Positions 6,601-33,366 of a stretch of 64,000 nt of DNA are shown here, one piece after another. Made by a program: the position numbers and the translations under genes. Under the pieces are notes generated by a model, which saw nothing but the letters and a program-made list of their open reading frames with translations, searched no databases and was not told the origin of the DNA. Every line of letters begins with the position of its first letter. Positions within the stretch are counted from its first letter, which is position 1. Origin of the DNA: a virus (lineage: Duplodnaviria > Caudoviricetes); IMG/VR virus record IMGVR_UViG_3300042470_001171, positions 1 through 64,000 of that record. One strand, given 5' to 3'.

Positions 6601-6740
6601 TCCCACTCCGGTGGGGGTTTCTCGACCACCGCCGCCTATATGGTGGACTTTGCCCCTCGCAAACACCTCCCCGCTTCGGTGGGGGTTTCTCGCTCTGACT
6701 GAGGCCTCAAAGCACACCCCACCACCGTGGGAGTCCTCAG
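6601..6740 (+). CRISPR. Mini-array A: 3 type I-E-like hairpin repeats, one 32-nt spacer and one short spacer
   Basis: CCCCAC-N4-GTGGGG plus GTTTCTCG handle; second repeat has TCGCAAACACCT extension. Confidence 0.8.
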
Positions 6741-7360: not shown

Positions 7361-7466
7361 GGATCCAGAATGCCCAGGCAACAAAAAACCCCAGCCGTGG
7401 CCGGGGTCGGAGTGGTGCATCTACAAAGCCTAATTTAACACGACTGGCTTATAGTTGGGTGTCAAA

Positions 7467-7648
7467 AGAAAAACCCCCACCAGTGTGGGGACTCGCCAGA
7501 GTCAAGAAGCACCCCCACCAGTATGGGGCGAGGGAGAGAACTCTGAAACATCCCCACCACTGTGGGGAAACATGCAACTATAGTTTGGATCCACCCCCAC
7601 CAAAATGGGGCTAGGTATTGTCATCGACACACCCCCACCAGCGTGGGG
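7467..7648 (-). CRISPR. Array B: 5 degenerate hairpin repeats with very short spacers (period 38-43 nt)
   Basis: Hairpins at 7475, 7513, 7552, 7595, 7633, each with a GT/AT-starting 8-nt handle on the minus strand. Confidence 0.75.
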
Positions 7649-7694
7649 CCACCGTCACCAAATTTTCAAGGTTCCTGTCCCCTACTATAGCACA
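7649..7694 (-). promoter_or_regulatory. CRISPR leader B: TGTGCTATAGT -10 and boxA GAACCTTGAAAA (7663-7674)
   Basis: Conserved among four arrays. Confidence 0.7.
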
Positions 7695-10594: not shown

Positions 10595-10903
10595 CTAGCC
10601 TAGGTGGCCCGGCTGAGGGGGACGGCCACCAGGGAACTGGTTCCGCTTGTCAGACTCAGCGCTAGCCACTACAGCGGTGCTGCGGCGGTTCGTGCAGGTG
10701 CCGTTCATGCACCGGGGGAATTGATCTCGGCTGGACTTGCTGAGTTGCTGGCTACCTTCCCGAGCACAGTCGGGATCCGAGCTGTAGCGCTCAGTCGGAC
10801 AGTGCCCGTCACCACGCAGTGCCACGGTGCTAGAGGCCAGAGAGGCGCCAGCGGGCAGGAACAGAGCAGCGGCCAGGACGGTTGCGGGGAAATGAAGTAA
10901 CAT
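10595..10903 (-). CDS. Hypothetical secreted Cys-containing protein
   Basis: Signal-peptide-like N-terminus; CCACTTAC leader. Confidence 0.5.
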   Translation of the reverse strand: MLLHFPATVLAAALFLPAGASLASSTVALRGDGHCPTERYSSDPDCAREGSQQLSKSSRDQFPRCMNGTCTNRRSTAVVASAESDKRNQFPGGRPPQPGHLG

Positions 10904-11848: not shown

Positions 11849-12448
11849 ATGCTGGCCAGACAACCCCTCGACTTCTATCCCACCCCCGGCCTGCTCACCT
11901 GGGCCTTGCTGGATAGCCATCGCTTTGTCCCCTGGCGCAACCAGGCCACCGTGCTGGAGCCCTGCAATGGCGAGGGTGCGATCAGCGATGTGCTGAAAGA
12001 ATCTGGCTTGTTCCGCCTGGTGGATACCGCCGACATTGATCCGGCCAAGACCAAGCCAGCAACCGCCATCGGTGCCACCAGCTTCACCATGGACGCCACC
12101 GATCCGCAAGCCTGGGCCCGGATGGCCCGCTACGACTGGGTGATCACGAACCCGCCCTACAACCAAGCCCCGGCGATCTTGCCATTGGCCTACGACAACT
12201 GCCGGGTGGGCATGGCCATGTTGTTGCGCCTCAGTTACCTGGAGCCCTGCAACAACCGGGCCCGCTGGCTGGCAGAACACCCGCCGGCCAAGCTGATCGT
12301 CTTTAACCCCCGGCCACGGTTCCGGGCGGATACAGTCGGCAGCGACTCGGTGACTAGCGCCTGGTTTATCTGGCACCGCTTCGGCAATAGCCAAGGGACT
12401 GAGCTTGAATTTTGTACTAACTGGAGAAACCATGGAACTGACAATTGA
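11849..12448 (+). CDS. Amino (N6-adenine/N4-cytosine) DNA methyltransferase
   Basis: DFYPTP, VLEPCNGEG (motif I), ITNPPY (motif IV). Confidence 0.8.
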   Translation: MLARQPLDFYPTPGLLTWALLDSHRFVPWRNQATVLEPCNGEGAISDVLKESGLFRLVDTADIDPAKTKPATAIGATSFTMDATDPQAWARMARYDWVITNPPYNQAPAILPLAYDNCRVGMAMLLRLSYLEPCNNRARWLAEHPPAKLIVFNPRPRFRADTVGSDSVTSAWFIWHRFGNSQGTELEFCTNWRNHGTDN

Positions 12449-13565
12449 CGCCAAAGGCCTAGCCGCTGTCCTGGCCCTGCCTAACCGGGCGGTGCCAAAC
12501 AGGCCCAGCAACCCTGTACTAACTAACCTGCTGCTCAATGCTGAGGGGGATACCCTGGCGGTGACAGGCAGTGACCTGGGAGCGGTGACCATCACCGCCA
12601 AGGCCAAGGCCAGCATTGCCGTAGAGGGCGAGATCCTGCTACCGGCCAAGCTACTCACCGATATGGTGGGGCGGATGGACGGGAACCTAGCGCTTAACTG
12701 GGATCCAGAAACCAGCCAGGCCACCATCAGCACTCTGGGAGGCAAGTATTCCCTATCCGGCCAGCCCGGGGAGGACTACCCGCTGATCGAGCGGGCAGAG
12801 GGCCAGCAGCTAACCATGGAGGCCAGCACCTTGGCCAGGGCACTAGAGTCCACGCTAGTCACCGCTAGCGATGACGAGAGTAAGCAGATCCTTTGTGGCG
12901 TTCACCTGCAACCCGTTGCCGATGGCCTCGAGGTTGCCTCCACCGATGGCCATCGCCTCAGCGTGTTCCCCGTGGCCCAGGAGGGCATTGAAGCATTTAC
13001 CCCTGTCACACTGCCTAGCAAAGGCCTGAAGGCCCTGAGTGGGCACCTGGGCAAGGCTGAGGGGATGGTGACGGTAACGCTAGACAACACCATCGCCACC
13101 TTTGACCTGGGTGGCCTGGTATTTACCACCCGGCTACTGGAGGGCCAGTATCCAGAGTACCGCCGACTCATCCCCCAGGCCTTTGTAGTGGAGACCCTGA
13201 TCAACCGGCAAGCCTGGATCGATGCCCTGAGCCGGATCATGGTGGTGGCTAGCCAAAAGCAAGGCATCATCAGGCACCAGTGGAATGACCAGGGACAGCT
13301 AGTGCTAGAAGCTGACGTACAAGGCTCTAGCGGGCGGGAGCTGGTTGACTGTGAGGCCAGCGAAGGCCAGGGTGAGGACGTGCTGGGCAAAGCTAAGAAT
13401 CCCATGGCCTTTAACGGCGACTACCTGCTGGATGGCCTCAAGGCCTTCGGCAGCGAGCAGGTGATCCTGCACACCAACACCCCGACCAGCCCAGCCACGA
13501 TCACCGCCCCCGGCAGCAGCCAGGTGTACCTGGTGATGCCAGTACAAATCAGGGACCAGATTTAG
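12432..13565 (+). CDS. dnaN: DNA polymerase III beta sliding clamp
   Basis: PVLTNLLL, GEDYP, STDGHRL, RLLEGQYPEY, YLVMPVQ; ~377 aa. Confidence 0.93.
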   Translation: MELTIDAKGLAAVLALPNRAVPNRPSNPVLTNLLLNAEGDTLAVTGSDLGAVTITAKAKASIAVEGEILLPAKLLTDMVGRMDGNLALNWDPETSQATISTLGGKYSLSGQPGEDYPLIERAEGQQLTMEASTLARALESTLVTASDDESKQILCGVHLQPVADGLEVASTDGHRLSVFPVAQEGIEAFTPVTLPSKGLKALSGHLGKAEGMVTVTLDNTIATFDLGGLVFTTRLLEGQYPEYRRLIPQAFVVETLINRQAWIDALSRIMVVASQKQGIIRHQWNDQGQLVLEADVQGSSGRELVDCEASEGQGEDVLGKAKNPMAFNGDYLLDGLKAFGSEQVILHTNTPTSPATITAPGSSQVYLVMPVQIRDQI

Positions 13566-13593: not shown

Positions 13594-13983
13594 ATGGAAC
13601 GCTTTACTTTTGCCGACTGCACCATCCAGGGCAGGCTGATCCGAGACCCCGAACTGCACACAACACCGTCTGGCAGCGCCCGTTGCCAGACCGCTATCAA
13701 TTGGTACAGCGGCAAGCACGCCAATGGCGAACCGTACTACAGCCTAATCGACGTAACGATCTGGAAGGAAGCAGGCATGGACGCTGTTGACAACTTACGC
13801 AAGGGCGACCGTGTGAAAATGGTCGGCTCACTGAAACGAGAACAATGGCAGGACAAAAATACTGGCGGCAACCGCTCTAAGCATGTGCTGCACGTTTGGG
13901 ATGCAGTCGAGCTGATCGAGCGCCCCAACCAGGACCAGCCAGCCCAGCCCAGCCAGCCCACCTACGAGGACATCCCCTTCTAA
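13594..13983 (+). CDS. ssb: Single-stranded DNA-binding protein
   Basis: GRLIRDPE, LRKGDRV, C-terminal EDIPF. Confidence 0.92.
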   Translation: MERFTFADCTIQGRLIRDPELHTTPSGSARCQTAINWYSGKHANGEPYYSLIDVTIWKEAGMDAVDNLRKGDRVKMVGSLKREQWQDKNTGGNRSKHVLHVWDAVELIERPNQDQPAQPSQPTYEDIPF

Positions 13984-14234: not shown

Positions 14235-14308
14235 AACCCCGGCATAAGCTGGGGTTTTTATTGCCAGTTATTGACTGAGTTATTGATCATTCCGATCAAT
14301 TCTTGGCC

Positions 14309-14376
14309 TGTGCCAGCTACTGTGCCACTAATTTACCTGGGGTATATTGACAAGCCCGATATAGTGGGGGTATATT
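14309..14376 (+). promoter_or_regulatory. Repeated sigma70 promoter cassette (TTGACA-N18-TATATT), copy 1
   Basis: Near-identical copies at 14648-14715, 15061-15128, 19259-19327(-), 25541-25607(-); partial copies at 23424, 42348(-), 43139. Confidence 0.85.
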
Positions 14377-14415
14377 AGAGACATGGAACGAACCACTTAC
14401 ACCGAGGACCGACTG

Positions 14416-14598
14416 ATGACCACCTTCACCACCACCCCTGCCGCTACCCCCACCTTTCGGAACGCCGCCCGCTGGCTCACCCGCCAGCCCTGGCAGTCAG
14501 ACCCAGCTTACTGGGTAGCCCAGGCCAAGACCCGCTACGACCTCACCAACCACCAAGTAGCCGCCCTACTCAACAACATGCAGCTACAACTAGGCTAG
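14416..14598 (+). CDS. Small cassette protein
   Basis: Own promoter, CCACTTAC-GAGGA leader and terminator. Confidence 0.65.
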   Translation: MTTFTTTPAATPTFRNAARWLTRQPWQSDPAYWVAQAKTRYDLTNHQVAALLNNMQLQLG

Positions 14599-14647
14599 GC
14601 CACCGCCACCCTACACTCCAGCCCCTCCCCCCGGAGGGGTTTTTTAT

Positions 14648-14715
14648 TGTGACAGTGGTTGTGCCACTAATTTACCTGGGGTATATTGACAAGCCCTATA
14701 TACCCCCTGTATATT
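14648..14715 (+). promoter_or_regulatory. Repeated sigma70 promoter cassette, copy 2
   Basis: TTGACA 14686, TATATT 14710. Confidence 0.85.
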
Positions 14716-14806
14716 GAGAACATACAAAGCAACCCACCCCGGATGGCTGGAACACCAGAAACGCTAGCCCAGGCAGGGGAGGGAGAATACACAAAAGGAG
14801 ACCACT

Positions 14807-15028
14807 ATGATTAAGTTCGAGCGCAAGAGCAACGGATCCCGTGAAGCCAAACTAAACATCAAAGGTCTTAACGCTTTTGCTAAAGCGGTAGAGCTTCAAA
14901 AGCTTGAGCGCCAAGGCTACACCGTTATGCCTTACAGATACGAAACCGACTCCAAAGGGTTTTTCACCAAGACAGTTTGGCTATACCGGGCTCACTGCGA
15001 AAACCGCACCATCTGGATCCACGCCTAA
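14807..15028 (+). CDS. Small basic cassette protein
   Basis: AAGGAG RBS; own promoter and terminator. Confidence 0.7.
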   Translation: MIKFERKSNGSREAKLNIKGLNAFAKAVELQKLERQGYTVMPYRYETDSKGFFTKTVWLYRAHCENRTIWIHA

Positions 15029-15060
15029 CCACCCTGCCACCCGGCGGGGTGGTTTTTTAT

Positions 15061-15128
15061 TGTGACAGTCATTGTGCCACTAATTAGCCCGGGGTATATT
15101 GACAACCCCAATATAGGGGGGGTATATT
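15061..15128 (+). promoter_or_regulatory. Repeated sigma70 promoter cassette, copy 3
   Basis: TTGACA 15099, TATATT 15123. Confidence 0.85.
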
Positions 15129-15134
15129 AGAGAC

Positions 15135-15335
15135 ATGGCCGAAAGGGCCGAGGGGATGCTACCCCCTAGTCAAAGCTTCCGGCGGGGGGAGATACGCAGT
15201 AACGAGATCTACATCGGTCAGCGCTGATAGCCAGACACCGCTTAAAGATCCTGTAGGGGCCGCAAGGTTCCTAGTGCCGGAGCCCTTCGTTTAGCGGGGC
15301 TGCCCACGGTGCCCCCCAGAGGGGAAGAACACTGG
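15135..15335 (+). ncRNA. Candidate structured non-coding RNA (~200 nt)
   Basis: Follows a strong promoter; no RBS-led ORF; GAAA and GCAA capped hairpins; long-range CTTCCGGC/GCCGGAG pairing. Confidence 0.5.
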
Positions 15336-15337
15336 TA

Positions 15338-15751
15338 CTACAAACTACAGGGGCGGTCAATGTGGTGGACGCCAAGATCGCATCCCTTGATCCTCAATGC
15401 TGCGTACTCCCCCCGCCTCTGTGTCTGGCCTGGGAATAACGATAGCTGCACTTGCTGAGGTTCAGCGGCAGGGCGGCCAACATCCTGATTTAGCCATTCC
15501 AGATAACCTGGATCGCTACCGCCCAGGTTAGGCCCTGGCGCTGGATGCTGGATCCCGCCAACCTTGACGATAGTGCGCTTTACCCATGGCGGATCCAGTA
15601 GGTTGCCTTCTATGTGGTTATACCAACGCATTTCTATAGCTCGGTGACACAATGCCCGGCCACGCATAGCCGTCAAGATATCACCCGTCCTGGCCGCTTC
15701 AGTAAGTAGCGCCTGTCCCTGCTCAAAAAGACATTTAGCCTCGTCTATCAT
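15338..15751 (-). CDS. Hypothetical protein
   Basis: ATGA overlap with sigma gene stop. Confidence 0.55.
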   Translation of the reverse strand: MIDEAKCLFEQGQALLTEAARTGDILTAMRGRALCHRAIEMRWYNHIEGNLLDPPWVKRTIVKVGGIQHPAPGPNLGGSDPGYLEWLNQDVGRPAAEPQQVQLSLFPGQTQRRGEYAALRIKGCDLGVHHIDRPCSL

Positions 15752-16338
15752 TGCGCCAGCCCCCAGCAGCTCACCTCGTAGACTGGCTCTGGCTCCCAGT
15801 CTGGCTCTGGTGGTGGCCTGCTATCGGGTAGCTCCCAGCAGTCGGTTAAGCCAGCCGCTAGCGGTGCATCCAGGCTGAGGCAGTCTGGCCGTAGCAACGC
15901 ATTGAGCGCCTGCGGGATCTGGTCTATCGGGATCCGGGTAGCGCTGGCCATGGCGGCATGGCTGGCCCGCTCGTCATAGAGCTGGCGTAGCAGGGTGAAC
16001 CGGTCTGACCAGCTACGCGGTATCTTCAGCGTCACCGCCCGGTCCCGGCGATGGTGCAATATCTCACCCCGGATGTAGGGCACAGCGTAGCTACTGAAGG
16101 CGGTGCCCTTAGCTGGGTTGTAGCGGTCCACTGCCTTGATCAGGCCGATCACTCCCACCTGCACCAGATCCTCGAATACTTCCACGCCGTCCTGGGCATA
16201 GCGGCCAGCTATCTTCTCCACCAGCCCCAGGTTGATCAGGATCAGAGTGTCGCGGGTACGCTTATAGTCGGCGGCTTTTAGTTGGGTTCTAAGCCGCGCA
16301 AATAACTCTTGTGTTTGGATCCGTATTTCCCGGCTCAT
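15748..16338 (-). CDS. Phage RNA polymerase sigma factor, SigF/SigB-like, apparently lacking region 4
   Basis: NLGLVEKIA, EDLVQVGVIGLIKAVDRY, FSSYAVPYIRGEILH, KIPR, SLDAP; ends soon after region 3. Confidence 0.88.
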   Translation of the reverse strand: MSREIRIQTQELFARLRTQLKAADYKRTRDTLILINLGLVEKIAGRYAQDGVEVFEDLVQVGVIGLIKAVDRYNPAKGTAFSSYAVPYIRGEILHHRRDRAVTLKIPRSWSDRFTLLRQLYDERASHAAMASATRIPIDQIPQALNALLRPDCLSLDAPLAAGLTDCWELPDSRPPPEPDWEPEPVYEVSCWGLAQ

Positions 16339-16428
16339 GCCACCCCCACCAGCCGATATAGTCAGTGTTCCCCTATACTATACTGGGTAAACTGTCAAGC
16401 TGGATCCAGTTGTGGGCACCCTGAAGCC

Positions 16429-17316
16429 ATGGATACTATTACCGTCACCTCCCAGCCCTCCCAGACTGCTAGCCTTGCCCTGCAGCAGGCCAGTAGCGAC
16501 GACCACCTGATCGAGATGTGGATCAGTCGTTCCCGAAGTGCTGGCACCCAGAAAGCCTACCGTCGAGCGATCACCCGGCTACGGGCTTGGCTAGCCCACC
16601 ACGACTGCCACCAGCTAGCCATGGTCACAGCGGCCATGCTGATCGACTATGAGGCCACGTTCCCGAAGCGCTGGAGCGATGCTACCTGCAACCTGCACAA
16701 GGCCGCCATCAAGTCGCTGTGGAAGTTTGGCAGCTCCATTCGTTACCTGCACTTTAATGTCCCCCATGCTGTCTACCGGCTAGGCAAGCCCAGGCCAGTC
16801 ATGGCGGAGCGGATCCTAACCGAAGGCGAAATGAGGCGGGCCATTGCCAAGGAACCTAGCCTGGAGGCCCAGCTATTCCTGCGCTTCCTATTTGCTACTG
16901 GCGTTCGGGCCAGCGAGGCGCTAGCGGTGCGGTGGTGTGACCTGCACCTACGCGGCCAGCGGGTGTTCCTGGCTATCCACCACGGCAAGGGCGACAAGGC
17001 CCGCGAGATCGGATGCTCCAAGGCTGTCTACGACGCGCTGATCCAGGCCCGGCCAGAGGATGCGCTGGACCAGGACGAAATATTCCCGGTGCCCTACCTG
17101 ATCGCTTGGCAATGGGTGAAGGTGGCCATGGCCAGGATCGGCAAGCCCCAGGCTAGCCCCCACTGGCTGCGCCATGCCCATGCTGTCACCGCAGCCGCCC
17201 ATGGCTCCGACTGGTGGAGCATTGCACAGCAATTAGGCCACGCCCGGCCGTCGTTCACAATGGACCGCTACGCCCATTTTAATGGGGTGTTTAGCTCGGA
17301 CTATGTGGATATTTAA
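16429..17316 (+). CDS. Tyrosine recombinase (XerC/D-like)
   Basis: TGVRASE, GKGDK, HWLRH, LGHA...RY catalytic set. Confidence 0.92.
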   Translation: MDTITVTSQPSQTASLALQQASSDDHLIEMWISRSRSAGTQKAYRRAITRLRAWLAHHDCHQLAMVTAAMLIDYEATFPKRWSDATCNLHKAAIKSLWKFGSSIRYLHFNVPHAVYRLGKPRPVMAERILTEGEMRRAIAKEPSLEAQLFLRFLFATGVRASEALAVRWCDLHLRGQRVFLAIHHGKGDKAREIGCSKAVYDALIQARPEDALDQDEIFPVPYLIAWQWVKVAMARIGKPQASPHWLRHAHAVTAAAHGSDWWSIAQQLGHARPSFTMDRYAHFNGVFSSDYVDI

Positions 17317-17350: not shown

Positions 17351-18030
17351 GCGGAAACTCCCACGATGGTGGGGTATAGGATAGGTACGGGCTGGAGGAA
17401 CGCCCACTAGAGTGGGGAATGCCAAGCCCAGTTTCACGCTGGAGCGATAGGGGCAAGACTCACCCCCACCAAAGTGGGGAGGTGTTTGCGAGGTGACGGG
17501 TCAGGCTAGCAAACTGGCCCTAACCGAGAAACCCCCACCGGAGTGGGGAGGTGTTTGCGAGTTAAGGGTGCTGGCGCGGTGCCTGACACTGACGAAAGGG
17601 AAAAACCCCCACCGAAGCGGGGAGGTGTTTGCGAATGCCGAGTCAATCGTGGTGGGCCTAACAGCTACCCCGGAGAAACCCCCACCGAAGCGGGGAGGTG
17701 TTTGCGAGCAGTGGGATCGGCACATTCAACGTCGGAGCGGTGGTCGATCAACCCCCACCGGAGTGGGGAAGTGTTTACCAGGCTGTTGTAAACGGGTTTC
17801 CGGCACATAGAAAAACCCCCACGAGGGTGGGGATACTGTGTTTCAGCCACCTCAAGGGCCAGGGGCGTGATAGGATAAACCCCCACCGAAGTGGGGAGGT
17901 GTTTGCGCTTGGGCACCGTGGCGCAATACGGCTTTTTCTCGGAGAAACCCCCACCAAAGCGGGGAGGTGTTTGCGAGAGGGTGCCCTATGGGCTGTCACT
18001 ATCGGCAGAAAAACCCCCACCGGAGTGGGT
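17351..18030 (-). CRISPR. Array C: 11 hairpin repeats; consensus TCGCAAACACCTCCCCACTTCGGTGGGGGTTTCTC(G/C); mostly 28-38 nt spacers
   Basis: Repeat anchors at 17462, 17531, 17605, 17678, 17751, 17815, 17879, 17947, 18013, plus degenerate hairpins near 17359 and 17402; unique spacers. Confidence 0.92.
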
Positions 18031-18082
18031 CCACCGTCACCTACCACCAAATTTTCAAAGTTCTTGCCCCCACTATAGCACA
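18031..18082 (-). promoter_or_regulatory. CRISPR leader C: TGTGCTATAGT -10, boxA-like GAACTTTGAAAA, GGTGACGGTGG
   Basis: Conserved among four arrays. Confidence 0.75.
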
Positions 18083-19320: not shown

Positions 19321-19423
19321 TGGCACACTCCCACCAAGTGGGAAGTAGGGGATACCGACATAGGATCCACTCCCACGCTGGTGGGGCCTCTTCATGCAGT
19401 GATCCACTCCCACCGCAGTGGGT
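19321..19423 (-). CRISPR. Array D: 3 hairpins with short spacers immediately downstream of cas5
   Basis: CCCAC-N3/4-GTGGGA-GTG... x3. Confidence 0.7.
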
Positions 19424-19429
19424 ATCGCG

Positions 19430-19876
19430 CTAGGCCTCCTCCCGGGCAACAGCCCAGATCGGGCCAGACGGGACACAATTACGCCGTCCTAGGTATAGCT
19501 GGAATTTAGGCCGGGCCAGCGCCTTGGCAATGGTGCGGATCTGCTGCAAGTCACCCCGCAGGGTAACGGTAGAACTGAAGTCGCTCAGGTAGTGCCGGGT
19601 GGTGATGGCATTGCGGCCTGGGGCCCCGTCATAGGTGATAGCATCGCGGATGGTGTGGAAGTCCTCCAACACTCCGCCATGGCTTGTCTCGCCTATCTCC
19701 ACCTGCAGCCCGTCCAGTTCCGGCGCTGACTGGCCTCGACGTATCCCCAGGGCAGCACACAACATGCCGCGGATCGCCGACTCAGTTGGGGCATCCTCCG
19801 TCAGTCGTTGCTGCAGCCGTGGCCCGGTGCCATAGGCAGCCATGGGGCCTGCTAGCTTCAGGACTAGCCTAGGCAT
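19430..19876 (-). CDS. cas5e: Type I-E Cas5 (short, 148 aa)
   Basis: LKLAGPMAAYG...R.T...PTESAIRGMLCAALG...DFHT...RHYLSD...LYLGRRNCVPS. Confidence 0.9.
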   Translation of the reverse strand: MPRLVLKLAGPMAAYGTGPRLQQRLTEDAPTESAIRGMLCAALGIRRGQSAPELDGLQVEIGETSHGGVLEDFHTIRDAITYDGAPGRNAITTRHYLSDFSSTVTLRGDLQQIRTIAKALARPKFQLYLGRRNCVPSGPIWAVAREEA

Positions 19877-21122
19877 AGGCCACCTCCTTGCCAGCACCCA
19901 TGGCTACTTGCAGGGCCCCATCAATGGCCCCGTCCAGGGGCTGGCCGAACCAGCCTGGCTGGGTAGTCACTTCAGCTTTGTACAGCGACTTGTCGCCGTA
20001 GATGACGTTTAGCCGGTCCTGGTACTGGCGCAGCGCATCAGCGGCCTGGTGCGGGATACCCTGGGCTAGGAAGTCGTCGTCGGTGGTGCAGCTATTGATT
20101 GACACATGGAATGCCGGTGCCAAGGTGTAAGGCTGAGCCGCTGTCACCCGCACCTGCACATAGTCTGGCCGAGTTAGATGGGCATGGCTGCGCACATAGC
20201 CAGTCGGCAGGGTAGTGCAGAATGCTGTCAGGAATCCCCGGGCAAACTGCTGGGCCAGCTCGGGGTCGCCGATCAAGCGGGCCAGCTCAGTGACATTCAG
20301 GTTGGCATAGCGGTAGTAGACGGGCGAGATGATGGGCAGCTCCCCCAGGTGGCCAGCGCCAGACTTAGATTCCTCATCCAAGGGTTCAATGTCATCTTCG
20401 GCGGTGAAAAAGTCCGGCTCACCAATCACTTGGCCCATGCCCTTGACATTGGTGATACCAAAGGAATTAACCGAGATCGCATCCGCCACTTGGGTGCAGC
20501 CATCGACGCTGGCCTCAGTCAGGCTAGCCATCATCCGGCCAAACAGTGCGACATCCCCTGGTACTTGCTGGCCTAGCTTGCCCAGAGCTTTGCGGATGCC
20601 CTGCAAATCCCTGGCGCTAGGTTTTTCAGGCGCTGGAGCCTTCTTGGGGTTTATATCCAAAGCCTCCTGGTAACGCTGGGCCCGCTCCAGCATATCTCCC
20701 AGTAGCACCGAATGATCGGCGGCCAGAGCGGCAATGGTGTCCAGCTCATGCTCAGACAGGAATAACAGGTTGCCGCTATCCTCCAGCATGGCCGGGATCA
20801 GGTTGTCGTCTTTGAGGTTGAACAAGCCCAACAAGAACCGAGCCACCATCAAGTTATCAGCGTCACCGCCCAAAAAGCCAGTGCAGCAGCAGGATAGGCG
20901 ACTGGCCAGGGCGACGTCATGGCGACGGCTGCGGAAAGCCAAGGCCTTGCGGTCAACGGCCATCCATTCCCCATAGTGTTGCCGGGCGGCCCGTTTCTGG
21001 GACTGGCTGGAGAGCCGGGCCCGCCAGCTACCACCGTATTGGATCTTTTTGGGTGCCCCGGACTTGTCCCGGTTGGCATTGCTGGGCGGTAAAGCGTGGA
21101 TCAGGTGCACTTCGATAAACAT
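19869..21122 (-). CDS. cas7e: Type I-E Cas7 (Cse4/CasC)
   Basis: PSNANRDKSGAPK...GG...RARLSSQSQKR; DVALFGRM; DFFTAEDD; GAGHLG...YYRYA. Confidence 0.95.
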   Translation of the reverse strand: MFIEVHLIHALPPSNANRDKSGAPKKIQYGGSWRARLSSQSQKRAARQHYGEWMAVDRKALAFRSRRHDVALASRLSCCCTGFLGGDADNLMVARFLLGLFNLKDDNLIPAMLEDSGNLLFLSEHELDTIAALAADHSVLLGDMLERAQRYQEALDINPKKAPAPEKPSARDLQGIRKALGKLGQQVPGDVALFGRMMASLTEASVDGCTQVADAISVNSFGITNVKGMGQVIGEPDFFTAEDDIEPLDEESKSGAGHLGELPIISPVYYRYANLNVTELARLIGDPELAQQFARGFLTAFCTTLPTGYVRSHAHLTRPDYVQVRVTAAQPYTLAPAFHVSINSCTTDDDFLAQGIPHQAADALRQYQDRLNVIYGDKSLYKAEVTTQPGWFGQPLDGAIDGALQVAMGAGKEVAYA

Positions 21123-21150
21123 AGGGTTCCTCCCTTAAGGACTGGGCCTG

Positions 21151-21288
21151 GTGGCCACCCCCACCGCCGTGGGGCCTTTTTGGTTGTCGATCCACACCCA
21201 CCGGAGTAGGTTGTATGACGTGTCTGTGCAGGAGACACCCCCACCGGAGTGGGGCCACTGCTCAGCCCTGAGACACCCCCACCAATGC
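21151..21288 (-). CRISPR. Array E: 3 hairpins plus a partial one in the cas6-cas7 junction
   Basis: Hairpins at 21159, 21196, 21239 and a half repeat at 21277 inside the cas6 3' end. Confidence 0.75.
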
Positions 21289-21876
21289 TGGCGCGGGCTC
21301 AGGCGTAGTCACCGCCGCCACCGGCAGCAACGACAGCAGGCCGCAGCCGTACGCCTTTTCCCGGCCAATGCCGTTGACCATGGCATCAGCTAGCCGCTGG
21401 CTATGGGTCACCGTCAGATACCCGTCCACTACCGATACCTCAATGGGGAATGAACGAGTGTAATGCTCACGGCGCACATGATCATGGTGTTTTTGCACTC
21501 GCACCTGGCGCACCTCGAAGGTAGCACCTAGCCGATCCTCCCTGGCGGCCAGCCACTCAGCGGCAGGCACCGGATAGCGCCGACACCGGTCATCCCGGTT
21601 ACTTTGGGCCACAGAGTTGAGCCCCAGGCGGAAGCGGTAACGCTCCCCAACATTAAGCAGGTTATGCCTAAACTCCAGCTTCACCTGGGCCTCATAGGCT
21701 TTAGGCCACTTGGGCTTTTCTACCGACTGCACCAGGATGGATCCGCCGTCAACCCGGAACAATGCCCCGACTTGGCTGCGGGGGTCTGGGCCCAGATCGT
21801 CAGGAAAGCCCGCCATCACATAGCGGTGCAGGCTTCCATGGCCATCTGGCCGGGCAAAACGAGAAAGGTATAGCAT
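21262..21876 (-). CDS. cas6e: Type I-E Cas6 (Cse3/CasE)
   Basis: YLSR, HRYVMAGFP, LFRVD, LVQS...P.W, YRFRL, C-terminal GIGREKAYGCGLL G-loop. Confidence 0.93.
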   Translation of the reverse strand: MLYLSRFARPDGHGSLHRYVMAGFPDDLGPDPRSQVGALFRVDGGSILVQSVEKPKWPKAYEAQVKLEFRHNLLNVGERYRFRLGLNSVAQSNRDDRCRRYPVPAAEWLAAREDRLGATFEVRQVRVQKHHDHVRREHYTRSFPIEVSVVDGYLTVTHSQRLADAMVNGIGREKAYGCGLLSLLPVAAVTTPEPAPALVGVSQG

Positions 21877-22520
21877 TATCGTGATCCTCCGTAAACGGTT
21901 CTGTAATTGGCTTGCCGCAGCCAGTCCACCGCAGCAGTCTGGCTGGACAAAGTAAATGTGTTGCTATCGAACCGCACCACTTGCAGCTCGACGCCCAGGC
22001 GGCCCTGGACTAGCTGGGCACCCCGGGCCTGACGTTGGCCACCTACGATCAGGCGGTGCAGAAAAGCTTGGTCTTCGGCGGCAATAGGGCCATCCTGAAA
22101 ACTGCGCTTGATGCGCCCCACATGATCGCAAATGTCTGCCTTGGCCCGCTCGAAGCTGATCGGCACCCCAGCAATGCAATAAGTTGGTCGGGGCACCGCT
22201 GGCACTATCTCCCAGGTGAAGCTGGACAGCTCCCCGCTATCGCGGTGGGTCCGTAAGCGTTCCACCGTGGACTTAGCCGGTAGGCCAGTCTCATGGAATA
22301 GCACCAGGTGCTTTTTGCTGGGCCGAGTCCAGCGTCGTTGGTAACTGTTGCCCTGGCCGATGGCCTCCCGCACCTGGTCGGCAGGCTTTACCTCCACCAG
22401 CGTGTCGTACTGAGCACCGTCGACGACTATGTCAATGCGGTCCTGACCTACGGGCACCTCAGTGCGGCCACCATGGCGGACGGCCCAAGCGTCCCGAATA
22501 ATGTCATGGGGGAAGTTCAT
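21876..22520 (-). CDS. PD-(D/E)xK nuclease-fold protein coupled to cas6
   Basis: EV...RIDIVV...LVEVK...AIGQ..SY pattern; TAATG overlap with cas6 start. Confidence 0.7.
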   Translation of the reverse strand: MNFPHDIIRDAWAVRHGGRTEVPVGQDRIDIVVDGAQYDTLVEVKPADQVREAIGQGNSYQRRWTRPSKKHLVLFHETGLPAKSTVERLRTHRDSGELSSFTWEIVPAVPRPTYCIAGVPISFERAKADICDHVGRIKRSFQDGPIAAEDQAFLHRLIVGGQRQARGAQLVQGRLGVELQVVRFDSNTFTLSSQTAAVDWLRQANYRTVYGGSR

Positions 22521-23855: not shown

Positions 23856-23907
23856 GTGCTATAGTGTTGGCAGGAACCTTGACAACTTGGTGGTAGGTGA
23901 CGGTGGA
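23856..23907 (+). promoter_or_regulatory. CRISPR leader F: TGTGCTATAGT -10, boxA-like GAACCTTGACAA, GGTGACGGTGG
   Basis: Conserved among four arrays. Confidence 0.75.
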
Positions 23908-24492
23908 TCCCACTTCGGTGGGGGTTTTTCGTACCCCCGACAGGGCCTTAACGGCGCGTGGCAAACAGCTCCCCACTTTGGTGGGGGTTTTTCTTTTTTC
24001 TAGCCACGATCAACGGGCTGAGCGACTCGCAAACACCGCCCCACTTCGGTGGGGGTTTCTCCCGTGTGACAGCGCATTCCTTTTCATCCCCGCCTTGGTG
24101 GGGGTGTGTCGATTTGCGGTTAACTCATGCACCCCACCCCCGTGGGAGTCTGTCTGCCATTGCCCGGGCCAGCCAGCTAGCCCCACCACTGTGGGGGTGG
24201 GTCAAGCGGATCCCGTCAGCCCCACAGCGTGGGGGTTTCTCCTGTTACCGGTCATGCCCACCATCGTGGGAGTCTGTCCCTACAAAAATCAGCCCATTCC
24301 GGTGGGAGTCTGTCACCCTGGCTCAGCTACCTAGCCCCACCAGCGTGGGGGTGTCTCGGCTGATTTTGAGGCGGGCGTGGCGGTATCGGTCACCTAGCCC
24401 CACCAGCGTGGGGGTGTCTCGCCTTCGCCTCACGATCCCCACCAGCGTGGGAGTGGATCTTGACAGCCCTTAGCCCACCCCGTGGGAGTCTA
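23908..24492 (+). CRISPR. Array F: about 13 hairpin repeats; two tagged long spacers, then mostly short spacers
   Basis: CCCCAC-N3/4-GTGGG(G/A)-GT recurring at irregular ~36-68 nt spacing. Confidence 0.85.
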
Positions 24493-28551: not shown

Positions 28552-28618
28552 CCGCTCACCCCCACAATGGTGGGGCAATTAAAGCGCTTCAGCAGGATCC
28601 ACCCCCACTGGCGTGGGG
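28552..28618 (-). CRISPR. Two-repeat mini-array inside the Tra-like operon
   Basis: CCCCAC-GCCA-GTGGGG-GTGGATCC, 19-nt interval, CCCCAC-CATT-GTGGGG-GTG. Confidence 0.7.
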
Positions 28619-28625
28619 CTTGGCC

Positions 28626-31963: not shown

Positions 31964-32394
31964 AGGGTGCTGTCCTAAGCGCCCCTGCGGTGGTCCGTCA
32001 GTTGCAGCCACAGCACTGGCGGGCCCTCAACTTGAAGGGGCGTCTACTTGTGTTTGAGTCCATGCTGACCTACGACCCGGCTAGTGCCCTGCGCTATGCC
32101 CGGTTTGTGGCAGGCGAACGCCTGGATCCAGTAGCTCATGATCCAGAGAATACTACTCCGCCAGAGGTTAAGGCCATTAAGCGCCAGGTAGCCATGCAGG
32201 CCAGCGAATGGCTAGCCCAGGCCATGGAGCCAGAATGCTTTGCCGACTACGAGCGGCAGATCGTGGCGCTCATGAAAGGCAAGCGCTATGTGGTGCGCTA
32301 TCAGATTGGGCTACAGCTGGGCCTCTATGGCCGGGCGGTTGCCATCCACAGCCCCATGTTTGTCAGGAAAAACTCAGCCTATTACCTGGCCTAA
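31960..32394 (+). CDS. Hypothetical protein
   Basis: ATGA overlap. Confidence 0.6.
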   Translation: MKGAVLSAPAVVRQLQPQHWRALNLKGRLLVFESMLTYDPASALRYARFVAGERLDPVAHDPENTTPPEVKAIKRQVAMQASEWLAQAMEPECFADYERQIVALMKGKRYVVRYQIGLQLGLYGRAVAIHSPMFVRKNSAYYLA

Positions 32395-32445
32395 CCCTGT
32401 CTTGTGTTCCCTTCCCCTATCCACCCTCACACCCAAGGAGTTCCT

Positions 32446-33366
32446 ATGGGCGCAACCTTACACCCCGTATTCCAGCGGGAATCCATGATCTGGCAAAGCA
32501 TTCTGACCGCCAACGAAAAGCTATTGCTGCTTTGCCTCAACTCGTTCCTAGGCGCTGATGGCCGATGCTTCCCCAGCATTGCCACCATGAGCCGGATGAC
32601 TGGCCTCAGTCGCAGCACGACTAACCGCACCCTGGCCCTACTCGAAGACCAAGCCATCATCAACAGCCAGCAACGCTACCGCGATGACGGCAGCCAGACC
32701 GCCAGTGATCGGTTCCTGGATTTTGATGCCATTCCAATGGCCAAACCGGATCCAGATCCAGCCGAAAATCAAGGCGGGGGGGTATGTCAAAATGACATGG
32801 GGGTGTGTCAGGATGACATGGGGGTGTGTCACAGTGAAACGGGGGGGGTGTCAGACTGGGAGGGGGGGGGTGTCAGCTTGACACACCAAGAACTATCCAG
32901 AAGAACTATCCAGAAGAACTATCTAGATCTTTTCCCCCCTACCCCCCGTTCAGAAAAAAAAGGGAAAAAAGAAACCAGCAAGCTGGATCCGGAAAGAACT
33001 GTTGCGCCGCCCGCCGCCGCGCCGGTGGCCGCAGTGGATCCATCCAAGCCTGATCCATTCGCGGCCCAGTTTGCGCCCAGGCCGTGGCGGGAGAATGGGT
33101 GGGGCAAGATCTTGCCAAAGTTCTGCGAGTTCATGGTTGCTGGCAAGCACATTGTTGTTGACGGGCAGATGAACCCTAAGACGAAGGCGATGTACCATGT
33201 GTCAAACTTGGAGCGAGATGGCAAATGGGATAAACTGGAATATCTCTGGGCTGAGTACCAAGCCAGCCTGCAGCCAGCCAGGCCAAAGGCTAAGCTGGCC
33301 ACGGAAAGCTATGACGAGCGGGTGCGTCGGGAGATGAACCAACACCAACAGAGGGAACACGCATGA
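32446..33366 (+). CDS. Phage replication initiator (N-terminal winged HTH, lambda O-like position)
   Basis: CFPSIATMSRMTGLSRSTTNRTLALLE; internal iterons; directly upstream of dnaB. Confidence 0.8.
   Translation: MGATLHPVFQRESMIWQSILTANEKLLLLCLNSFLGADGRCFPSIATMSRMTGLSRSTTNRTLALLEDQAIINSQQRYRDDGSQTASDRFLDFDAIPMAKPDPDPAENQGGGVCQNDMGVCQDDMGVCHSETGGVSDWEGGGVSLTHQELSRRTIQKNYLDLFPPTPRSEKKGKKETSKLDPERTVAPPAAAPVAAVDPSKPDPFAAQFAPRPWRENGWGKILPKFCEFMVAGKHIVVDGQMNPKTKAMYHVSNLERDGKWDKLEYLWAEYQASLQPARPKAKLATESYDERVRREMNQHQQREHA
32776..32970. repeat. Putative origin: five GGGGGxxTGTCA iterons at 21-bp period, followed by an A-rich tract
   Basis: TGTCA at 32785, 32806, 32827, 32849, 32871; GAACTATCCAGAA duplicated; A-runs at 32954-32974. 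Confidence 0.75.

Follow-up and report, generated by a model that had tools for sequence, protein, structure and literature searches.

The viral DNA analysed here (the window, 64,000 nucleotides) is the first 64 kb of a linear 72.8-kb IMG/VR virus record (IMGVR_UViG_3300042470_001171, here G000; Duplodnaviria, Caudoviricetes) with a completeness estimate of 79%. On its plus strand, positions 15135–15417 are probably an independent gene for a stable, structured non-coding RNA (ncRNA) of an undescribed family that acts in trans on a host factor, a judgement that covers the whole statement and is weighted toward the part that was directly observed. The presence of a real, new and transcribed family of structured RNA is very likely, and action in trans on a host factor, given that the RNA is real, is rated at slightly under an even chance. 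Several features of an independent structured ncRNA gene were found at this locus. The element follows a promoter in six of six distinct family members, forms a conserved block with defined borders, carries compensatory pair changes with a strand bias and keeps no reading frame. It occurs as a single copy per genome in unrelated carriers and is present on contigs from RNA libraries. A sequence-only reading of the window had proposed a candidate novel structured ncRNA at this position and named a missing transcript, missing covariation or a translated small open reading frame (ORF) as grounds for dropping it; the candidate survives all three checks, with its boundaries and helices corrected. 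The newness lies only at the level of the RNA family, in that no known family fits and the mechanism may prove ordinary.

The family was collected by a metagenome scan together with DNA-pattern scans of viral contigs, and further viral scans based on different conserved blocks led to the same four contigs again. Six distinct versions fall into two clades, clade A containing the window, G001 and G002, and clade B containing L019, G003/L024 and L023, which show about 70–72% identity to the window. Two further copies (L020 and L022) are identical to the window and a third (L021) is cut by a contig end. A profile search of the fetched records with nhmmer identified one copy in each of six sequences and nothing else below an E-value of 0.2. 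The block shared by the window, G002 and G001 runs from CATGGCC (15134) to CTCCCCCCGC (approximately 15417), with 15134–15251 identical across all three, and G001 is unalignable outside of it. In contigs with otherwise unalignable flanks, the block starts at the predicted transcription start site and ends with a long closing helix, P3. The core, counted from the first base of hairpin P1 to the last base of P3, is exactly 256 nucleotides (nt) in five of the six versions and 281 nt in the window (15137–15417). The gene as a whole is approximately 283 nt in the window, an extent based on the conserved block, the folding z-score, covariation and an RNA-library contig. The earlier delimitation at 15135–15335 set the 3′ boundary about 80 nt too early: the interval 15133–15340 is no more stable than its shuffles (z +0.24; 115 of the 200 fold equally well), and the whole element (15134–15420, plus strand) reaches −129.8 kcal/mol with a z-score of −4.17 and no shuffle of 200 as good. 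The corresponding z-scores are −1.65 for the minus strand of the window's element (13 of 200 shuffles) and −3.20 for the G001 copy (0 of 200).

Upstream of the gene is a sigma-70-type promoter (15099–15128, plus strand) composed of a −35 TTGACA (15099–15104), an 18-nt spacer and a −10 TATATT (15123–15128), which matches the consensus at 11 of 12 positions and ends 6 nt before the RNA gene. This promoter is the third copy of a cassette already recognized by the sequence-only reading, with TTGACA-18-TATATT sites at 14347, 14686 and 15099 that each score 11/12, two of the three being preceded by a terminator plus TTTTATTGTG. The copy numbers are above chance, with two matches to a 43-nt cassette (0.00 expected) and four to its 13-nt core (0.07 expected), and additional cassette copies lie elsewhere in the record. 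All six distinct family members carry a sigma-70-type promoter on the strand of the RNA, with the −10 element ending 5–6 nt before the conserved block. Each lineage has a promoter unrelated to the others: the cassette described above in the window, another cassette in G003, of which a further copy follows the next gene, and a third promoter, with an extended −10, in G001. Because the promoters differ between lineages, the conserved unit is the transcript and not the promoter. The host RNA polymerase with its primary sigma factor would fire from this site, giving early or constitutive expression, and the transcript would begin at approximately 15135 (AUGGCC...), a position taken from promoter geometry. 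As a separate observation, the first cassette copy (14347–14598) ends in TATATTAGAGACATG, identical to the third, and an ATG at 14383 opens a 71-amino acid (aa) ORF with no space for a ribosome-binding site. From its sequence, this ORF may be expressed as a leaderless messenger RNA (mRNA), and RNA-library contigs of relatives cover it.

No ORF led by a Shine-Dalgarno sequence follows the third cassette, in agreement with the earlier reading, and an ATG 6 nt past the −10 element opens a 30-aa ORF (15135–15227). This ATG is located exactly at the promoter-predicted transcript start and the first cassette copy likewise precedes its 71-aa ORF, an arrangement that would suit a leaderless mRNA for a small protein, translated from the 30-aa ORF or from a shorter one at an inner AUG. 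This explanation is extremely improbable given how the frames vary. The 30-aa ORF is confined to clade A, with ATC in place of the ATG in clade B (three of six members), and sequence conservation extends 190 nt past its stop codon. The inner AUG, which sits in the loop of hairpin P2 without a ribosome-binding site, starts a frame of 23 codons in clade A but of 36 in clade B. Since a 1-nt indel makes the two clades read the same bases in different frames, conservation acts at the nucleotide level. A leaderless small-protein gene was rejected on the loss of the start codon and the shifted frame, and the small ORF does not account for the conservation of the region.

The RNA is predicted to fold into two 5′ hairpins (P1 and P2), an invariant 13-nt linker and the long, irregular closing helix P3 of about 23 pairs, inside which would lie a multi-branched core of roughly 180 nt. 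For RNAalifold, the alignment was hand-corrected at two MAFFT misplacements (the P1 loop and the 3′ arm of P3), which resulted in 80 pairs in 15 helices; all coordinates given below for the fold refer to the plus strand. P1 is a GGCC-GAAAG-GGCC hairpin (15137–15149) in which two pairs change from C-G to G-C in L023 (GGGG-GAAA-CCCC). P2 (A-GGGG-AUGCUAC-CCCC-U, 15151–15167) has a G-C pair changed to C-G in G003/L024. Both hairpins had been noticed from the sequence alone and are in place, the second with its GGGG-AUGCUAC-CCCC portion at 15152–15166. The linker AGUCAAAGCUUCC (15168–15180) is identical in all six members, contains the palindromic AAGCUU and, in the predicted fold, is largely unpaired. 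The 5′ arm of P3 (15181–15209) consists of segments 15181–15189, 15193–15201 and 15204–15209, corresponding to helices 4–6, and pairs with the 3′ arm at 15389–15417, which is followed by the U-rich UCUGUGUCU. Within these arms, 15181–15199 is the reverse complement of 15400–15417, and self-comparison recovered the internal inverted repeat in all three records searched. Five P3 pairs are changed on both sides, in addition to G-C to G-U changes.

P3 takes the place of the enclosing helix proposed previously between CTTCCGGC (15176–15183) and GCCGGAG (15277–15283). Both strings exist, but their pairing is specific to one lineage and is absent from five of the six distinct members. Likewise, the TAGGGGCC-GCAA-GGTTCCTA hairpin is present at 15255–15274 and falls inside a stretch that only the window's lineage has. 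This variable stretch (15255–15305) is approximately 51 nt long in the window's lineage, including the UAGGGGCC-GCAA-GGUUCCUA hairpin, and approximately 26 nt in the five other members. Because the extra bases of the window form this hairpin and supply one partner of the proposed enclosing helix, both are lineage-specific. A CGGT/ACCG stem was not upheld, as the alignment reads C-A in G003, and overall about one third of the helices first described are lineage-specific or are not conserved pairings. The inner helices 7–10 have their 5′ halves at 15215–15256, and helix 10 (15250–15256 with 15345–15351) has three pairs changed on both sides. Helix 13/14 (15301–15340) contains the invariant block ACGGUGCCCC-loop-GGGGA with an apical CCCC/GGGG stem (15312–15315 with 15321–15324), and the window does not preserve the lower part of helix 13 (four unpaired cells). 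The best-supported helices are P1, P2, P3 and helix 10.

In the hand-corrected alignment, 96.5% of 479 cells are paired and 13 pairs are changed on both sides, against a shuffle mean of 6.3 and with none of 1000 shuffles reaching this count. The uncorrected alignment (A6) gave closely similar values, with 96.2% of 474 cells paired, 13 both-sided changes against 7.8 in shuffles (0 of 500) and a covariation score of 0.205 vs 0.118. When the partners in A6 are slid by 1–3 columns, only 37–49% of cells pair. Read as the reverse strand, the proportion of paired cells falls from 96.5 to 85.4%, because 55 G-U cells turn into A-C, and the preference for a plus-strand RNA that had been drawn from G-U pairs is borne out. 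This asymmetry and the G-U pairs fit an RNA and not a DNA cruciform, which bears on the reading of the locus as a DNA-level inverted-repeat element such as a replication origin, an attachment site or a miniature transposable element. An inverted repeat of 18–19 nt, an integrase gene 900 nt away and mobility between phages would all be in keeping with such an element. Nevertheless it is very improbable, since the conserved block begins 47 nt before the 5′ arm, exactly at the start site of the promoter, G001 has no adjoining integrase, and a likely origin is found elsewhere, with 21–22-nt iterons (32778–32876) in a helix-turn-helix (HTH) gene beside the DnaB gene. A 20-mer scan of genome contigs also gave one chance match and no bacterial attachment-site partner.

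Searches of the whole window against Rfam 15 (4227 models) at gathering scores returned no matches, and at E-values up to 10 none fell on the element; the three hits listed were all on the upstream terminator (14950–15061). The G003 copy gave one chance-level match (snoZ185, 15 bits against a cut-off of 50) and the G001 copy gave none. The statement that no family can be assigned is therefore upheld by Rfam 15 for three members. A search of the main text of the papers in the library found none of four conserved motifs of the RNA, and topic searches provided comparators but no account of this RNA. An ncRNA of a retron (msr-msd) or other defence reverse transcriptase was rejected, as RVT_1 (PF00078) is found in none of five records while control genomes scored. 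An omega RNA of TnpB or IscB was also rejected: PF07282 gave a single sub-threshold match (20.5 bits against a cut-off of 26.3) in the 85-aa ORF of G003 and none in G000, G001, G002 or G004, and the genes beside the element are without such domains.

Several known RNAs share some of these features. The abundant and stable 6S RNA binds a host protein complex, and its 5′ and 3′ parts form a long closing helix. The closing helix of the element is likewise made of paired 5′ and 3′ parts, but no Rfam 6S model is matched, the element begins with two additional hairpins, and its core is branched where 6S RNA has a single central bubble. RNAs C and D of T4 and the pRNA of phi29 are stable, structured phage transcripts driven by early promoters that are not mRNAs, each confined to one phage lineage. 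The element shows no sequence or model similarity to them, leaves the Rfam pRNA model unmatched and, unlike them, crosses unrelated phages. GOLLD and ROOL are often carried by phages and prophages and are about 580–800 nt in size. Both are described as large, ornate RNAs with no known biochemical function that form homo-oligomers, and GOLLD, judging by its name, was first seen in lake metagenomes (PMC12286853). Like GOLLD and ROOL, the element is an orphan, highly structured and phage-carried ncRNA; it differs in being far smaller and in not matching their Rfam models.

The 501 nt at 15000–15500 are present in 16 lake or freshwater DNA runs at at least 0.90 of words, and partly in four metatranscriptome runs. 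One metatranscriptome contig of 267 nt (run X17) equals 15142–15408 with no differences, and a run from a different study (X18) has contigs on 15151–15251 and 15222–15355. RNA-library contigs from two studies, which show no strand, lie on the element where a transcript had been called for, and they are a hint, of moderate strength, at a discrete RNA of roughly this size. The flanking genes have no contig cover in these two runs, an absence that proves nothing. The only other contig in X17 (193 nt, 16133–16325) falls within the sigma-factor gene, in its 5′ portion, shortly before the integrase gene begins. In the remaining two runs (X19 and X20), cover is limited to the 71-aa, 73-aa and sigma genes as they occur in relatives. 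In X20, a contig from an approximately 90% identical relative joins 15050 to 15750 with TTTT between, so this relative is without the promoter, the RNA and the 137-aa gene, and the three therefore come and go as a block.

The 3′ part of the RNA is crossed by the last 25–30 codons of a convergent 137-aa ORF (15338–15751, minus strand), the tail of which (15338–15417) is antisense to the last 80 nt of the RNA. In the window, G002 and L019, the element is located between a 73-aa gene and this convergent gene. Such a layout, seen in three of six contexts, and the joint absence of promoter, RNA and 137-aa gene from one relative would agree with a cis-antisense or convergent-transcription device, in which transcription from the strong promoter would enter the convergent operon of the sigma factor and the 137-aa ORF at its 3′ end, and either the RNA or its synthesis would lower or terminate that operon. 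This is improbable as the function of the family, however, given that the other three contexts (G001, G003/L024 and L023) have no convergent gene and conserve the RNA equally, and that such a device does not need a fixed-length 256-nt core with compensatory changes. The overlap itself is a lineage-specific extension of approximately 30 codons (15338–15430, minus strand) beyond the homologues, which end at QLxLF. Among 12 database homologues, 10 lack the overlapping extension and seven end at QLxLF or within four residues of it; these 12 have no Pfam domain and no informative name. Because the homologues end before the overlap, it is considered incidental and special to the lineage, and the 137-aa protein was rejected as a demonstrable partner of the RNA given that the shared core stops short of it.

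On the downstream side, the element precedes an 85-aa zinc-ribbon-like gene in G003, in L023 and, farther off, in L019. In G003/L024 this gene starts within approximately 27 nt, and a small alternative hairpin with a run of U residues shares bases with the 3′ arm of P3, as might be expected of a long 5′ leader, or riboregulator, controlling a same-strand downstream gene by alternative pairing of the closing helix. A 494-aa gene located approximately 110 nt downstream in G001 would also suit a leader. The chance of this is slim, as the window and G002 have no following plus-strand gene, the downstream genes of G001 and clade B are unrelated, the distance in L019 is approximately 300 nt with an opposite-strand ORF between, and no Rfam riboswitch or leader model matches. 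The 85-aa ORF is Cys-rich and basic and lies downstream of the RNA in clade B (10607–10864 on the minus strand of L024, equal to the 32208–32300 region of G003). Each of the rival explanations fits some contexts and fails in others.

A further rival concerns the type I-E-like Cascade encoded in the window on the minus strand, consisting of Cas6e (21262–21876), Cas7 of the Cse4 family (19869–21122) and Cas5 (19430–19897). Cas3, Cas1 and Cas2 were not found among the window ORFs scanned. Hairpin-repeat arrays (17395–18031 and 23891–24463) flank the cas genes in opposite orientation, with CCCCAC-NNNN-GTGGGG plus AGGTGTTTGCGAG as the repeat at a spacing of 62–74 nt. The RNA could accordingly be read as a guide or partner of the phage's Cascade, or as a repeat-mimicking RNA anti-CRISPR against a host system; the most conserved block of its 3′ half is a short CCCC/GGGG hairpin with AUACACAC directly after it, which bears a loose resemblance to a repeat hairpin and its 8-nt handle. 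Racr RNA anti-CRISPRs are described as solitary repeat units that mimic a CRISPR repeat (PMC10651486). Like them, the element is a phage-encoded ncRNA expressed from a promoter of its own, and its proposed target would be a host ribonucleoprotein; in our reading one of its invariant hairpins loosely resembles a repeat hairpin. It differs in having a core of 256–281 nt with 80 proposed pairs in about 15 helices and no solitary repeat unit, which led to the rejection of a small Racr-type unit, and in showing no similarity to the phage's own repeats, the only repeats compared.

The link to Cascade suggested by the sequence-only reading found no support. Cas7 occurs in two of the five RNA-carrying records, G000 and its close relative G002, which represent one lineage, and was not found in G001 and G003 (73% and 69% complete). 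The array regions have no BLAST match to 15134–15420, and the phage's spacers and arrays have none to G001, G003, L019 or L023. The duplex energy of the element with a CRISPR-repeat string was no better than that of shuffles (53 of 300 and 218 of 300), a rough negative given that the string was inexact. A CRISPR RNA (crRNA) or RNA partner of the phage's own Cascade was rejected on the cas co-occurrence, in incomplete records, and on the absence of repeat similarity, and CRISPR-related function in general has a low probability. Complements of the invariant linker with up to three mismatches occur at eight sites in the window against 4.8 expected, a count that 10 of 100 shuffles reach, and one of the eight is the element itself, so they point to no target. 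Beside the cas genes, a 214-aa ORF is located upstream of them (cas region 19430–22520, minus strand). Solitary or paired copies of the CRISPR-repeat-like hairpin are also found outside of the arrays (6602–6691, 7464–7659, 19364–19422, 21156–21256 and 28557–28619), with one pair, 80 nt apart, between the Cas6e and Cas7 genes. These copies could be mini-arrays or regulatory crRNA-like units.

The proposal that the ncRNA acts in trans comes from the phages that carry it. G000 has about a dozen proteins in common with G001, some of them, a C5 cytosine methylase among these, at 86–94% identity, and four in common with G003. Between G001 and G003 there is essentially no overlap, and no protein occurs in all three. 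With the window's phage, two of the carriers have hardly any proteins in common. The setting of the element differs as well, since in G001 it is found among baseplate and tail genes with no integrase adjoining. Because the carriers share almost no proteins and each has its own early-type or moron-type promoter, action in trans on a shared host component, and not on a partner encoded by the phage, is suggested. The host is probably a cyanobacterium, as the 8-mer GCGATCGC, which we take to be a mark of cyanobacteria and their phages, occurs 143 times in G001, 39 times in G003 and eight times in L019 against 0.2–1.7 expected (an enrichment of about 20- to 80-fold). A BLAST search of 14300–15800 against isolate phages and plasmids returned no match, and neither did the G003 copy against isolate phages at E-values up to 1. 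The 20-mer scan of genome contigs found no bacterial or prophage copy; its sole match, in a Pirellulales assembly, is attributed to chance because there is no similarity past those 20 bases. Separately, GATC is approximately 1.8-fold over-represented in G000.

Once transcribed, the RNA would be stabilised by its 5′ hairpins and closing helix and would end at, or be trimmed to, the U-rich stretch directly after the 3′ arm of P3. It could serve as a decoy or scaffold for a host protein, in takeover or counter-defence. Carriage by unrelated phages is the pattern of protein morons and anti-defence genes, and the sharing pattern suggests an RNA-only cargo that can be traded like protein morons. A more specific version, in which the element is a horizontally mobile RNA moron of 256 nt that is traded among unrelated cyanophages and disarms a host system by RNA alone, is unlikely. 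It could take the form of a decoy for a defence or RNA-processing protein, with the invariant GUGCCCC-loop-GGGGAUAC hairpin as the bait, or of a ribozyme or self-assembling RNA that makes contact through the unpaired AAGCUU. If true, this would constitute a new class of phage counter-defence or takeover RNA. To our knowledge, very few phage ncRNAs of this size combine compensatory changes, their own promoter and presence in environmental RNA libraries, and we know of none common to phages with almost no shared proteins. With its small size (256 nt) and constant length, the element is easily synthesised, so that direct tests are feasible for its fold, its protein partners and any activity in catalysis or oligomerisation.

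Several points weigh against reading the element as a stable ncRNA acting in trans. The analysis yielded no target, partner or phenotype that would bear directly on function. The changes were counted in the very sequences from which the structure had been derived, and related sequences can beat all shuffles without structure. Because there are only six distinct sequences in two clades, most of the both-sided changes represent one deep split. Helices 7 and 8 have one-sided changes only, and a local hairpin at 15213–15228 fits equally well. Helices 3, 9, 14 and 15 are invariant. The U-rich stretch follows P3 in all six members, as read from the alignment, yet no canonical intrinsic terminator was found after P3 in the window. 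One was called only in L024, and the first good terminator of G001 lies about 80 nt past the element. The 3′ end is therefore inferred and was placed where the closing helix stops. The Logan contigs carry no information on strand, ends or level, and DNA can occur in RNA libraries. For the phage of the window itself, the assignment of a host is an indirect one, because GCGATCGC is absent from G000 (1.8 expected), and with it from the window, as it also is from G002 (0.7 expected).

The plus strand near the element is organised into three short transcription units. Upstream of the RNA gene is the 73-aa gene (14807–15028, plus strand), the intrinsic terminator of which (15027–15054, plus strand) has a 12-pair stem with eight G-C pairs and a T run, followed by TTTTATTGTG. 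This terminator marks the upstream edge of the RNA's transcription unit, and the same terminator-plus-TTTTATTGTG form is also present at 14620–14641. Genes for a beta clamp (12405–13565) and a single-stranded DNA-binding protein (SSB; 13594–13983) are located nearby. On the other side, the 137-aa ORF forms a convergent pair with the sigma-factor gene (15748–16338, minus strand), which is followed by a tyrosine integrase (16309–17316, plus strand). Farther into the window, 21–22-nt tandem repeats (3.6 copies) and 13-nt repeats occupy 32778–32927 inside an HTH_36 gene (32404–33366) directly before the DnaB helicase gene, and are probably origin iterons. Over the first 654 nt of the window, a 126-nt unit is repeated in tandem 5.2 times (94% matches), at the beginning of a 1232-aa ORF that matches beta-propeller (YNCE-like) proteins.

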